Below, piece after piece: positions 39,987 through 43,660 of a stretch of DNA of 64,000 bases (position 1 is its first letter; each line of letters starts with the position of its first letter). The DNA comes from an uncultured Chlorobiaceae bacterium. Its GTDB lineage: Bacteria; Bacteroidota; Chlorobiia; Chlorobiales; Chlorobiaceae. The stretch lies in the NCBI GenBank assembly GCA_903869365.1, contig CAIPYV010000009.1, forward strand, positions 1,042 through 65,041, read 5' to 3'. The notes under the pieces are model-generated. The model made no database searches. It saw nothing but the letters and a program-made list of their open reading frames with translations, and was not told the origin of the DNA. A program made the position numbers and the translations under genes.

Positions 39987-40053
39987 CACTCTTTTGCTGA
40001 ACATAAAGCGGTTTTTTTAGACCACAGCCCCATTGCACCAAGAGAATCATGCT

Positions 40054-40488
40054 ATGAAGCTTCTCGTTGCACTTGATTTTTCGGAACGTGCTGAAAGGAT
40101 TATTGCTGAAGCGGAAAAACTTGCAAAAGCCCTTCGGGCGAAAGTTTTTTTGCTTCATGTAGTACCGCCACCTTCACCGATTATTGACGTTCCTCCTGAC
40201 GTGGAAGCAGTGGTTCCGCCAGAAAAAGTGTTTAAAAAAGAGACCGAAAAACTTCTTAAGATTGCCCAGCTGCTGCAGGAGAGCGACATTGATACAGCTG
40301 TCATTGTTGCACAAAATGATGAGATTACCGCTATTATCGACGAAAGTAACAAAAATGGTGTCGATATGATCATGCTGGGAACCCAGGGACACGGTGCACT
40401 CTTTCATCTTATCATCGGGAGTGTCTCAGAGGGGGTAATCCGTCGCGCAACCTGCCCTGTTGTCATTGTGCCTTCAATAAAGCACTGA
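40054..40488 (+). CDS. Universal stress protein
   Basis: LLVALDFS; DMIMLGTQGHG...IGSVSEGVIRRATCPVVIVP. Confidence 0.92.
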   Translation: MKLLVALDFSERAERIIAEAEKLAKALRAKVFLLHVVPPPSPIIDVPPDVEAVVPPEKVFKKETEKLLKIAQLLQESDIDTAVIVAQNDEITAIIDESNKNGVDMIMLGTQGHGALFHLIIGSVSEGVIRRATCPVVIVPSIKH

Positions 40489-40535: not shown

Positions 40536-42218
40536 TCAAGGAAGCCGGTTCAATGCACTGACCGTGGCTTTGATTGAAGCAAGACTGATATTTGAATCAA
40601 TTCCTGCACCATAAGAAACCCGTCCATCAGCGCAACCGATCTTTATATACGCTATGGCAAGGGCTCGTGCGCTGTGTCCGATAGCATGTTCGACATACTC
40701 GTCAACACTGAATTCAAGATCACTCTCCTTGATAAAACCTTTGACAAATGCATCCAGCGGACCGTTTCCTCTTGCCTCAAAGCTAAACTCTCTCTCCTTC
40801 ATCTGCACGATGCAACTGATCGACGTCGTTTCTTCATCACAACGAAGCGGATCCTCATCATCCCAGCTGAAATGGCACTTTTTGAGGGTAACCGGTTCCT
40901 TGAGTTTCACATACTCAGAATGAAACAGTTCATGAATCTGCTCCGAGGAAAGCTCTTCGCCCGTAGTATCGGCAACTGCCTGAACAGCTTCAGCAAAATC
41001 GGGCTGCATCCATTTTGGAATCTGAAGACCAAAATCCTTTTCAAGCACGTAGGCCATTCCGCCCTTGCCGGACTGACTGTTGATACGCACAATCGCCTCA
41101 TAGGTACAACCGACATCCTGCGGATCAATCGGCAGATATGGAACAGCCCACAAGCCATCAGGGGAAAGAGGCTGGGCTTTCATCCCTTTACTGATAGCGT
41201 CCTGGTGAGAACCTGAAAAAGCTGTATAGACAAGATCGCCCGCATAAGGATGGCGAGGATGAATATCCATGCGGGTGCACCGGCGATAAACCTCGCGCAC
41301 CCGTGGCAGATCTGAAAAGTCAAGTTCCGGATCGACACCCTGACTGAACAGGTTCAAGGCCATGATCACAATATCCATGTTACCGCACCGCTCACCATTC
41401 CCAAACAATGCCCCCTCAATACGGTCAGCCCCAGCCAACAAGGCTAATTCAGCAGTAGCTACTGCCGTACCTCGGTCATTATGGGCATGAACGCTGATCA
41501 GAACAGCATCCCGATTCTTGATGTTTCTGGAGAACCATTCAATCCGATCGGCATAAATATTTGGCCGCGACATTTCAACCGTTGAGGGCAGATTGAGAAT
41601 AATTTTTTCATTTACAGATGCTCCCCAGGTATCCATGACAGCGTGACAGACATCAAGCGCATAATCAAGCTCTGTACCGGTAAAACTTTCAGGGCTGTAC
41701 TCGAAACGAATACCAGCATTGCCACTCGTCTCCTTCAATCGGCGAACAAGCGCTGTACCCTCGACCGCAATAGCCTTGATCTCCTCCTTGTCTTTACGAA
41801 ACACGACATCGCGCTGTAACCGTGACGTCGAATTGTAGAGGTGAACAATGGCATGCTTCGCTCCGCTGATGGCATCAAATGTTTTTCGTATTAGGTGTTC
41901 GCGCGCCTGAGTGAGCACCTGGATGGTGACATCATCCGGTATCAGATTATCCTTGATCAACCGCCGGACAAACGCATACTCTGTGGCGGATGCTGATGGA
42001 AAACCAACCTCGATCTCCTTGAACCCCACCGAAACCAGAAGCTGAAACATGGAAACCTTTTCCTCCACACTCATTGGAACTGGAAGCGCCTGATTTCCGT
42101 CACGAAGATCCACACTGCACCATATCGGCGCTTTCGTGATAGTGTTGTCCGGCCAGCTTCTTGCGGGAATAGCAACCGCAGGGTATGCTGTATATTTTTG
42201 ATAATTCATTTTTTTCAT
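40536..42218 (-). CDS. leuA: 2-isopropylmalate synthase (yeast/actinobacterial-type LeuA)
   Basis: WCSVDLRDGNQAL, HAHNDRG, GNGERCGN, AFSGSHQDAI, RINSQSGKGG and GNGPLDA motifs; regulatory domain present. Confidence 0.96.
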   Translation of the reverse strand: MKKMNYQKYTAYPAVAIPARSWPDNTITKAPIWCSVDLRDGNQALPVPMSVEEKVSMFQLLVSVGFKEIEVGFPSASATEYAFVRRLIKDNLIPDDVTIQVLTQAREHLIRKTFDAISGAKHAIVHLYNSTSRLQRDVVFRKDKEEIKAIAVEGTALVRRLKETSGNAGIRFEYSPESFTGTELDYALDVCHAVMDTWGASVNEKIILNLPSTVEMSRPNIYADRIEWFSRNIKNRDAVLISVHAHNDRGTAVATAELALLAGADRIEGALFGNGERCGNMDIVIMALNLFSQGVDPELDFSDLPRVREVYRRCTRMDIHPRHPYAGDLVYTAFSGSHQDAISKGMKAQPLSPDGLWAVPYLPIDPQDVGCTYEAIVRINSQSGKGGMAYVLEKDFGLQIPKWMQPDFAEAVQAVADTTGEELSSEQIHELFHSEYVKLKEPVTLKKCHFSWDDEDPLRCDEETTSISCIVQMKEREFSFEARGNGPLDAFVKGFIKESDLEFSVDEYVEHAIGHSARALAIAYIKIGCADGRVSYGAGIDSNISLASIKATVSALNRLP

Positions 42219-42251
42219 GGTACGTCACTCTCCTTTTGTTCCTATTACATG

Positions 42252-42286
42252 AAAAAAGCCACCAACCCTAAGAGGCTGGCGGCTTT
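42252..42286 (-). terminator. Attenuator terminator (3:4) in the leuA leader
   Basis: mRNA AAAGCCGCCAGCC-UCUUAG-GGUUGGUGGCUUU-UUU; about 34 nt upstream of the leuA ATG. Confidence 0.85.
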
Positions 42287-42316
42287 AACAACGTTCTTTC
42301 TATCGACAACAACGAA

Positions 42317-42409
42317 CTAAAAAGCACCTCCCCTTAGAGCCATCACACTCCGAAGCAGCAGGCCCTGGGTAAGCAGAAGGTTGTTAAGGTTCGTTGCACG
42401 CATGGTCAT
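42317..42409 (-). CDS. Leucine-rich leader peptide (LeuL-like) MTMRATNLNNLLLTQGLLLRSVMALRGGAF
   Basis: 30 codons with 8 Leu including two LLL runs; immediately upstream of the terminator and leuA. Confidence 0.8.
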   Translation of the reverse strand: MTMRATNLNNLLLTQGLLLRSVMALRGGAF

Positions 42410-42628
42410 AAAAAAATAATTCAGCATATCTGATAAATAATGCTGTAGTAAAAATACAAAAAATGCGAACGCTTGCAAGACAAGCTTGAATATTTATCTG
42501 CGACAAAACCCATTATCCCTTAGTTATACCTTGACCGGTAAGATCACAAAAGGAATACCTTGAACATAGAGATTCTGCTGTACAGCAAAAAAAAAGAAGA
42601 AATAACAAGGGTAGGATCTGTATAAAAC

Positions 42629-42667
42629 AAAAAAAAGGAAGCTCACCTTATCAGTGAGTTCCTTTTT
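42629..42667 (-). terminator. Terminator downstream of tRNA-Asn
   Basis: AAAAAGGAACUCAC-UGAUAAG-GUGAG(C)UUCCUUUUUUUU. Confidence 0.8.
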
Positions 42668-42668
42668 C

Positions 42669-42743
42669 TGGCTCCGCGGGAAGGACTCGAACCTACAACC
42701 CTGCGATTAACAGTCGCATGCTCTACCATTGAGCTACCGCGGA
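42669..42743 (-). tRNA. tRNA-Asn (GTT), CCA encoded
   Basis: TCCGCGGTAGCTCAATGGTAGAGCATGCGACT-GTT-AATCGCAGGGTTGTAGGTTCGAGTCCTTCCCGCGGAGCCA cloverleaf. Confidence 0.97.
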
Positions 42744-42915
42744 ATATGCTATCAGCATTATTTCTGCTGATGGGCTGATAATATAAAACGGTTTTTTTTA
42801 AATACAAACCCTCTTTTGCTTTTTTTTGATTTATGTTAAGAGTTGTAGCTTCAACCATTTTCATTTTCCATAATAATTTTTGTACATTGGTGTTCTTTTA
42901 CTGAAAAGAGGGTAT

Positions 42916-43443
42916 ATGCATAAAGAAAAATCGCACATAGCGATCCGGATTGCGGATCTTATGCAGGGAATCCATGAGTTTGATTTTACCTGCAATGCCT
43001 CGGATTTTGAAGGCTGGCAGTTACATGAGGCTGGTTTTACCCGGGATATAACGATCAGTGTCATTGTTGATAAAAGTGAAAAAGAACTCACTGTCACGAT
43101 TAAAACATGCACTGTGGCAGATTTCGCCTGTGATATTTGCCTTGCGCCGATAGCAAGGACTCTTTCCGGATCGCTCAAGCTCCATTATTTATCAGGTGTA
43201 CCTGTTGAAGAGGCTCAAGACTGGGATGAAGAGTACCGTTTCCTCGGCAATAAGGACGAATCCATAGATCTTACTGGCGATGTTTGCGAAACACTGCTGC
43301 TCTCGCTACCATTGAAGGTAGCCTGTACTGATAATGCGGATTGCAAGCTTTTTGGACGTAATGAAAAAAATGAAGGGTTTCATGCCGATGAGATAAGTTC
43401 CTGGCAGGAGTCTCTTAAACAGCTGAAATACAAGTATCGTTAA
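42916..43443 (+). CDS. yceD: DUF177/YceD family protein (start MHKEK)
   Basis: CDICL and IDLTGDVCETLLLSLPLKVAC motifs; directly upstream of rpmF. Confidence 0.85.
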   Translation: MHKEKSHIAIRIADLMQGIHEFDFTCNASDFEGWQLHEAGFTRDITISVIVDKSEKELTVTIKTCTVADFACDICLAPIARTLSGSLKLHYLSGVPVEEAQDWDEEYRFLGNKDESIDLTGDVCETLLLSLPLKVACTDNADCKLFGRNEKNEGFHADEISSWQESLKQLKYKYR

Positions 43444-43468
43444 CCGACTATAAATAAAGAGTACCGCT

Positions 43469-43660
43469 ATGGCCAATCCTAAAGCCAAAATGTCTAAATC
43501 CAGACGGGATAAAAGACGAGCCCAGTTCATTGCCCGTACCAAGCCGGCGACCACTGTCAACTGCCCTAACTGCGGTGAACCAACCCTTCCGCACCGTGCC
43601 TGTCGCCATTGCGGACACTACCGCGGCAGATGTGTTGTCAATAAATTAGCAAAGAGCTGA
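43469..43660 (+). CDS. rpmF: 50S ribosomal protein L32
   Basis: [17 protein letters not shown]; [17 protein letters not shown]. Confidence 0.98.

Follow-up and report, generated by a model that had tools for sequence, protein, structure and literature searches.

The gene leuA of an uncultured Chlorobiaceae bacterium, which encodes 2-isopropylmalate synthase, is likely to be controlled by a ribosome-mediated (leader-peptide) transcription attenuator that tunes transcription of the gene to the availability of charged tRNA-Leu. The element lies on the minus strand of the window, by which we mean the whole analysed stretch of 64,000 nucleotides (nt) of contig CAIPYV010000009.1, and it consists of a short leucine-rich open reading frame (ORF), RNA segments with alternative pairing partners and an intrinsic terminator located between the leader ORF and leuA. 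A preliminary description, made from the letters of the DNA alone, had proposed a leucine-sensing attenuator here, and the leader, the alternative stems and the terminator were all recovered at the minus-strand positions it gave. The conservation of the Leu codons, the reading frame, the terminator, the antiterminator, the 1:2 hairpin and the co-transcription of leader and leuA all fit the proposed logic.

Read on the minus strand, an A/U-rich stretch is followed by the leader ORF (ATGACCATGCGT...), a spacer of 30 nt, the terminator hairpin, the AAGGAG of leuA and the leuA ATG at 42218. The strand with the first Leu run is here called segment 1, the G-rich strand near the end of the ORF segment 2, the 5' arm and loop of the terminator segment 3 and its 3' arm segment 4, so that 1:2 is the hairpin around the ORF, 2:3 the antiterminator and 3:4 the terminator.

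Conservation of the leader in Chlorobiaceae

A LeuA scan of species-representative genomes gave 80 Chlorobiaceae loci with protein identities of 74-94%, and three Prosthecochloris-type loci (69-71% identity) were added via the protein database; the 120 protein matches listed were all from Chlorobiales. In about 80 of 85 loci, from Chlorobium, Chlorobaculum, Pelodictyon and Prosthecochloris, leuA is directly preceded by a homologous leader, and in almost all loci a small ORF rich in Leu lies 165-215 nt before the gene. The peptide reads MRxTNxNNLLLxLxLLL...ALRGGAF in the Chlorobium type and M..NNMLLL(L)xLxLxG..LRGxAL in the Chlorobaculum type, while MNGIRLHSLLLTGLLLLHEGGCGEGVS is an example of the Prosthecochloris type. 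Forty-six Chlorobium-type leaders were aligned (alignment A1), and the profile hidden Markov model built from this alignment matched nearly every related locus, once and over its full length; the match always lay immediately upstream of leuA and on the same strand. In genera outside the profile the E-values were 1e-9 to 1e-17 (Chlorobaculum) and 4e-15 to 6e-8 (Prosthecochloris), and in the 64-kb window the profile found a single copy (E = 2.7e-47).

The element is one homologous family, and because it is conserved family-wide at a fixed position it is old within Chlorobiaceae. The same conservation contradicts a recent acquisition; the preliminary description had offered acquisition as one origin of the module. 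A few loci depart from the general pattern. The element was not found by the profile search of the leuA locus in L030, the terminator is kept and the Leu-rich leader is absent in L035 and L048 (a Chlorobium chlorochromatii metagenome-assembled genome), and in L049 and L083 the leader Leu codons are dispersed and form no runs. The loss of the leader in C. chlorochromatii, an epibiont in phototrophic consortia, might reflect relaxed leucine regulation.

The leader ORF and its leucine codons

The longest form of the ORF, from the ATG at 42409 to the TAG at 42319-42317, reads MTMRATNLNNLLLTQGLLLRSVMALRGGAF and has eight Leu codons with two runs of three. This was the leader of the preliminary description (42409-42317), of which the leucine content and both runs (42379-42371 and 42361-42353) hold, while the start has to be moved to 42403, which shortens the peptide to 28 residues. 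The ATG column at 42403 is invariant in 46/46 aligned leaders and the TAG is nearly invariant; the in-frame upstream ATGs at 42409 (42407-42409) and 42427 (42425-42427) are unconserved in the relatives. Since the relatives start at the second ATG, the peptide is likely to be the form of 28 residues beginning with MRATN and not the one of 30 residues.

The Leu runs have the signature of codons that are read by a ribosome. In run 1 the first and second codon positions are C and U in 34-43 of the 46 sequences, and in run 2, where these positions are nearly invariant, the third base is nearly random, codon 17 ending in A in 13, C in 16, G in 9 and T in 8 sequences, with third-position entropy up to 1.94 bits. 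All six Leu codons occur among the leaders of the different species. The distance from ATG to TAG is 69, 81, 84 or 87 nt and a multiple of three in 42/46 sequences. The four that are out of frame form one clade with a -1 indel, and in these the stop comes five codons early, at the TAA in GGCUCUAAGGGG, still inside segment 2, the nucleotide sequence of which is kept despite the different reading frame. The loci of this clade are L001, L003, L005, L006 and L044, and their RNA sequence is otherwise the same. This codon periodicity, together with the preservation of the frame, suggests that the leader is translated.

The coding signature is restricted to the Leu codons; in its 3' half the ORF is under constraint as an RNA. 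Every codon position is conserved in the last five codons and in the Thr-Asn codons, which are RNA elements incidentally read as ALRGGAF and TN. A second ORF, starting from a UUG about 13 nt after the Shine-Dalgarno-like GGAGGUG in segment 2, was considered and rejected, as the UUG is unconserved in the relatives.

Alternative structures of the leader RNA

Folding had been recommended in the preliminary description as a check on the element, and its outcome was favourable: the leader of 176 nt folds at -60.3 kcal/mol, compared to a mean of -46.5 for shuffled sequences (z = -3.5, with 1/200 dinucleotide shuffles as stable), and the alternative 2:3 fold was obtained when segment 1 was masked. 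In the minimum-energy fold of the full length a long imperfect hairpin encloses the whole ORF and is followed by the terminator. In the 3' strand of the helix at its base, AGTTCGTT is nearly invariant in alignment A1, and RNAalifold recovered both this helix, with the consensus ACGAAC:GUUCGU, and the terminator unaided. In the 46 sequences 84.7% of the alignment cells of the base helix are paired. The Leu-run-1 strand ACCUUCU/CUU (42381-42371) pairs with AAGGGGAGGU (42335-42326) in the minimum-energy fold, and the pairing of Leu run 1 with the G-rich AAGGGGAGG of segment 2 is kept in 83.7% of cells; this helix and the base helix are the best preserved of the 1:2 hairpin. The preliminary description had placed a protector stem around a C(UUCG)G loop. 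Its helix AGGGCC (42366-42361):GGCUCU (42341-42336) is indeed present in the minimum-energy fold, but the loop is unconserved and the helix is the weakest of the 1:2 hairpin (66.7% of cells paired). For the 1:2 hairpin as a whole, 78.9% of cells are paired versus 39-56% in controls with slid positions, and 17 pairs have changed on both sides.

The terminator was located where it had been described, with its U tract (42286-42252), and its stem has 14 pairs instead of the 13 bp given before. The stem-loop at 42286-42255 reads AAAGCCGCCAGCCU-CUUA-GGGUUGGUGGCUUU and is followed by more U; seven of its pairs are G-C. Across the 46 sequences 93.6% of its cells are paired (30-61% in slid controls), and two pairs have changed on both sides.

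The read-through state was modelled with a ribosome on a Leu-run codon (16 nt masked from the A-site codon) and with the 3' arm of the terminator untranscribed. In this fold GCUCUAAGGGG-GGUG-CUUU (42340-42321) pairs with AAAG-CGCC-CCUCUUAGGGU (42286-42265) over 19 bp, which absorbs the entire 5' arm of the terminator together with its loop and makes the two structures mutually exclusive. The same antiterminator is predicted with the ribosome on any of the Leu-run codons, with a free energy (dG) of -21.3 kcal/mol alone and -28.8 with the inner hairpin. The antiterminator of the preliminary description (42341-42330 with 42275-42264) pairs at 12/12 positions, including four G-U pairs (dG -13.2 kcal/mol), but these 12 bp are only the core of the 19. 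Segment 2 (AGGGGAGGUGCUUUUU) is approximately a copy of the 3' arm of the terminator (AGGGUUGGUGGCUUUUUU).

The antiterminator is paired in 86.2% of cells, in contrast to 42-63% in slid controls, and seven pairs (34 cells) have changed on both sides, the centre alternating between A-U, G-U and G-C as in CUAAG:CUUAG versus CUGAG:CUCAG. Independent of any alignment, RNAduplex found the same duplex of segments 2 and 3 in 69/69 sequences and in every lineage. In a permutation test, used in place of a dinucleotide-shuffle control, the duplexes formed by segments 2 and 3 of the same species were 1.1 kcal/mol stabler than cross-species mixes (p ~2e-4). Alignment of leuA leaders across the group, another check recommended beforehand, thus brought out compensatory changes (7 pairs in the antiterminator and 17 in the hairpin), and the covariation may be taken as moderate evidence. 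The strong argument is that the three mutually exclusive structures are kept in the same register across genera.

The 1:2 hairpin has a dG of -29.7 kcal/mol and the terminator 3:4 one of -23.0. According to these energies the terminated state would be thermodynamically favoured and read-through would need kinetic capture; the trp and leu paradigms have the same energetic pattern. Segment 2 spans the region 2-22 nt upstream of the stop codon, which places it inside the usual footprint of a terminating ribosome.

Transcription of the leader with leuA

A candidate promoter of the sigma-70 type precedes the leader. In most Chlorobium-type loci the motif TTGCA(A/T)-N16/17-TAT(T/A)TT precedes the leader ATG at a fixed distance of about 45-50 nt, and its version in the window scores 8/12, which is under the scan threshold of 9/12. 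TTGCAA-N16-TATTTT may also be a useful example of a housekeeping promoter in Chlorobiaceae.

The transcript evidence consists of assembled contigs without a depth profile. Metatranscriptome contigs from three runs of one freshwater sample (X13, X14 and X21) begin within leuA and extend unbroken across the terminator and the leader up to 42428-42430, where the X13 contig runs on into Illumina adapter sequence. A read-through mRNA of leader and leuA thus exists in situ, and its start is at or upstream of about 42428. The gap of about 15 nt to the predicted start at 42444 fits the usual loss at the ends of assembled contigs. RNA contigs of a related Chlorobaculum in pure culture also link leader and leuA. 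Leaderless initiation at the ATG at 42427, which adjoins the 5' limits of the RNA contigs, was considered as well and is unlikely, since this ATG is unconserved and the conserved promoter predicts a start at about 42444.

In a related locus (L069, positions 2760-2908), a sediment metatranscriptome contig of 223 nt (about 3x) matches the leader only, with 100% identity, and passes into adapter within the terminator hairpin. Either a piece of a short terminated leader RNA or a stop of the reverse transcriptase could have given rise to it, and it is taken as a weak hint.

Table 1. Positions in the window of the leuA leader elements and neighbouring features
Feature	Position	Strand	Remarks
Candidate sigma-70-type promoter, TTGCAA (42478-42473), 16-nt spacer, TATTTT (42456-42451)	42451-42478	-	predicted start ~42444
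Outermost 5' ends of metatranscriptome contigs	42426-42430	-	contig ends, not mapped transcription starts
Putative leader peptide ORF, 28 residues and stop, MRATNLNNLLLTQGLLLRSVMALRGGAF	42317-42403	-	start at second, conserved ATG
Base helix, 5' strand, GCAACGAAC	42389-42397	-	Thr-Asn codons; pairs with 42317-42309
Leu run 1, CUU CUG CUU (codons 9-11)	42371-42379	-	also segment 1, 5' strand of the 1:2 hairpin
Leu run 2, CUG CUG CUU (codons 15-17)	42353-42361	-	C and U nearly invariant at codon positions 1 and 2
Segment 2, GGCUCUAAGGGGAGGUGCUUU	42321-42341	-	alternative partners: segment 1 or terminator 5' arm and loop
Base helix, 3' strand, GUUCGUUGU (stop-codon G and UUCGUUGU)	42309-42317	-	overlaps and directly follows the stop
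Segment 3, terminator 5' arm and loop, AAAGCCGCCAGCCUCUUAGGGU	42265-42286	-	antiterminator partner of segment 2
Intrinsic terminator, 14-bp stem, 4-nt loop and U6 (42257-42252)	42252-42286	-	terminator scan, dG -23.0 kcal/mol
Shine-Dalgarno sequence of leuA, AAGGAG	42230-42235	-	unpaired in predicted folds; downstream of the terminator
leuA, 2-isopropylmalate synthase, 560 residues, long TIGR00970 type	40536-42218	-	gene proposed to be regulated

The leuA locus

The gene leuA is monocistronic and a stand-alone unit, convergent with a Usp-family gene at 40033-40488 on the plus strand. The preliminary description had called its product a LeuA of the yeast or actinobacterial type, which agrees with the score of the TIGR00970 leuA_yeast model for 40536-42218 on the minus strand (738 bits against a cut-off of 697). 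The protein begins with MKKM... (42207-42218, minus strand), where the second in-frame ATG is codon 4, and several relatives align from this second Met only, which leaves the start of leuA uncertain by three codons.

About 260 nt upstream of the leader there is a tRNA-Asn(GTT) gene (region 42642-42743) with its own terminator (42658-42642, minus strand). In two related loci, L028 and L032, the tRNA-Asn directly adjoins the leader and no promoter motif lies in between, and in L035 it directly adjoins the bare terminator. In these three loci leuA may be co-transcribed with tRNA-Asn. A terminator scan over 1.1 kb found four terminator-like sites, compared to 0.9 expected.

Proposed mechanism

Transcription would start about 40 nt upstream of the 28-codon ORF, and a ribosome would translate the leader while it is being transcribed. 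When leucine is plentiful, the ribosome would pass both Leu runs to the UAG at 42319-42317 and cover segment 2, and when no ribosome is present segment 2 would be held by the Leu-codon strand in the 1:2 hairpin. Covered or held, segment 2 would leave the terminator hairpin (42286-42255) to form, and transcription would end at the U tract, short of leuA. Under leucine scarcity the ribosome would stall at CUU-CUG-CUU (42379-42371) or at CUG-CUG-CUU (42361-42353), occupying segment 1 and setting segment 2 free. Because segment 2 resembles the 3' arm of the terminator, it could then capture the emerging 5' arm and loop before segment 4 is made, and with the 19-bp antiterminator in place the polymerase would read on into leuA.

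The arrangement, in which the Leu codons themselves serve as the anti-antiterminator strand and a copy of the 3' arm of the terminator as the antiterminator, and which is confined to a stand-alone leuA, might be an independent invention specific to Chlorobiaceae, although we consider this rather unlikely. Control of leuA only would in that case be explained because LeuBCD are shared with the synthesis of isoleucine by the citramalate route and are therefore unfit for leucine-only control. In the same reading an abundant terminated leader RNA or its peptide might in addition act in trans, by analogy with the rhizobial trp attenuator. Green sulfur bacteria are reported to make isoleucine via citramalate with LeuBCD. 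LeuA would then be the only leucine-specific step, and hence its gene the sole regulated one.

Evidence against attenuation and alternative explanations

Several observations weigh against a leader-peptide attenuator. The leader ATG has no clear Shine-Dalgarno sequence in the window, where the upstream sequence is A/U-rich, and the relatives have at most a weak GUGAU; the missing strong Shine-Dalgarno is the weakest point of the argument for translation. As segment 1 is rich in pyrimidines, its codons would in any case specify Leu, Pro, Ser or Phe, and the enrichment of Leu in run 1 could partly be a by-product of pairing, a problem from which run 2 is free. The dinucleotide-shuffle z of the 2:3 duplex averages only -1.2, as the G-rich strand pairs readily with any C-rich arm and the shuffles therefore discriminate poorly, and neither the permutation nor the shuffle controls are corrected for shared ancestry. 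Covariation is modest, most paired positions being simply conserved. Four loci (L049, L083, L035 and L048) have weak or no Leu runs, yet the terminator is retained. Both the leucine response and the translation of the leader are deduced from sequence patterns, and the 3' end at the U tract is a predicted one.

Alternatively, the terminator could be a constitutive, partly efficient one or an RNA stabiliser, perhaps a back-up for tRNA-Asn, in which case the Leu-rich upstream ORF would be translated but act in some other way, for instance by translational effects or as a small peptide, and leucine would switch nothing. This would agree with L035 and L048, which keep the terminator without the Leu leader, with the loci in which tRNA-Asn adjoins the region (L028, L032 and L035) and with the ease with which read-through transcripts were assembled; moreover, trans-acting attenuator peptides and RNAs are known in Sinorhizobium (PMC7298713). 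However, in the window the tRNA-Asn is served by a separate terminator (42658-42642), and a conserved candidate promoter sets the leader apart from it. A constitutive terminator would have no use for an antiterminator that overlaps its 5' arm in all lineages and covaries with its loop, and the regulatory codons match the pathway product of leuA, which makes this explanation improbable.

The ORF could also be incidental and the element a regulator made of RNA only, such as a riboswitch, a tRNA-sensing or a protein-binding element, which would change between terminator and antiterminator with no need of translation. In the 3' half of the ORF and in the flanking ACGAAC/GUUCGU the conservation is that of an RNA and not of a peptide, and the leader ATG stands without a clear Shine-Dalgarno. 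Furthermore, a riboswitch-like pseudoknot has been proposed upstream of actinobacterial leuA, and mutational data from Streptomyces do not fit classical attenuation (PMC1262725). Against this, an untranslated RNA would hardly account for a CUN periodicity in which the third base varies freely, or for the invariant ATG, the near-invariant TAG and a frame kept in 42/46 sequences despite changes in length. No T-box or riboswitch family matched at E-values up to 10, and the sequence between the helices contains no conserved, unpaired core of the kind expected for a ligand pocket, so that a regulator of this kind appears quite improbable.

Finally, it is very improbable that leucine-dependent stalling acts by Rho-dependent termination or on the initiation of leuA translation instead of the intrinsic terminator: the Shine-Dalgarno-like, G-rich segment 2 (GGGGAGGUG) does pair with Leu codons in a way that echoes the actinobacterial LEU element, for which an effect on leuA translation initiation has been proposed and in which the run of Leu codons pairs with the Shine-Dalgarno of leuA (PMC1262725), but here the partner is internal and not the Shine-Dalgarno of leuA (42235-42230), which lies in an unstructured stretch, and a strong, conserved intrinsic terminator is present here, whereas the LEU element is without one.

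Significance

With the proposed leader-peptide attenuator, the annotation of Chlorobiaceae genomes gains a regulatory element and a small ORF that it lacked, and the alignment, which has more than 70 sequences, could serve as the seed of a new Rfam family. It predicts that in green sulfur bacteria the synthesis of leucine is controlled at the committed step through the charging of tRNA-Leu. To our knowledge, very little gene regulation has been characterised in green sulfur bacteria. The element would be another clear case of classical attenuation outside Proteobacteria, and it implies that transcription and translation are coupled in the phylum. It changes no concept and will not surprise a specialist; its value is in annotation and as a test system in the genetically tractable Chlorobaculum tepidum.

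Comparison with known systems

A cmscan search of positions 41500-43500 with E-values up to 10 found no Leu (RF00512), His, Trp or Phe leader, T-box (RF00230) or riboswitch on the leader; the minus-strand matches there were only weak and terminator-driven (E > 3). A match to Thr_leader at 42564-42670 on the plus strand (21 bits, E = 0.5) is spurious, as it is the terminator hairpin of tRNA-Asn and A/T runs read on the opposite strand. A description of a leuA attenuator in Chlorobi was not found in the searchable literature, outside of which is a 2004 paper by Vitreschak et al. (FEMS Microbiol Lett 234:357). That paper, a comparative-genomics survey, reportedly predicts amino-acid attenuators 'in some cases' in Bacteroidetes/Chlorobi, and may already include an attenuator of leuA in Chlorobium tepidum. 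A RegPrecise-type survey of regulons in Chlorobiales used Rfam motifs only (PMC3766115).

The closest functional parallel is the enterobacterial leuL (RF00512). Both have a short peptide with consecutive Leu codons, 1:2, 2:3 and 3:4 pairings and stalling that favours (here, would favour) the antiterminator, and each leader shares a transcript with the first leucine-specific gene. In contrast, there is no similarity in sequence or structure detectable by cmscan at E-values up to 10, the regulated unit is a monocistronic leuA of the long type (TIGR00970) and not leuABCD, the Leu codons of the leader come as two runs of three and not as four in a row, and the host belongs to Chlorobiaceae and not to Gammaproteobacteria. 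The element thus appears to work like the RF00512 family, although no membership in it can be detected.

The LEU element of actinobacteria (Seliverstov et al. 2005, PMC1262725) is like the present element in that it lies upstream of a long-type leuA and that its Leu codons pair with a sequence that is G-rich and resembles a Shine-Dalgarno. The published model of it is a pseudoknot, the base stem of which sequesters the Shine-Dalgarno of leuA, with no obvious terminator (PMC1262725). In the Chlorobiaceae leader, on the other hand, the Shine-Dalgarno of leuA is unpaired in the predicted folds, the G-rich strand that pairs with the Leu codons is internal and a strong terminator follows.

Leader-peptide attenuators have also been described outside Proteobacteria: the ilv-leu operon of Staphylococcus aureus has a leucine-rich attenuator peptide (PMC5794164), and a leu/phe leader of Lactococcus and Bacteroid-trp (RF01692, PMC2864571) are further cases. 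They differ from the leuA leader in that their sequences are unrelated and they belong to other operons, those of S. aureus and Lactococcus being set apart here by their published descriptions only, and the cmscan search found none of them in the window. Leader-peptide attenuation is thus widespread, occurring in Firmicutes and Bacteroidetes, and what these systems share with the element upstream of leuA in Chlorobiaceae is the combination of regulatory codons with a switch between terminator and antiterminator.

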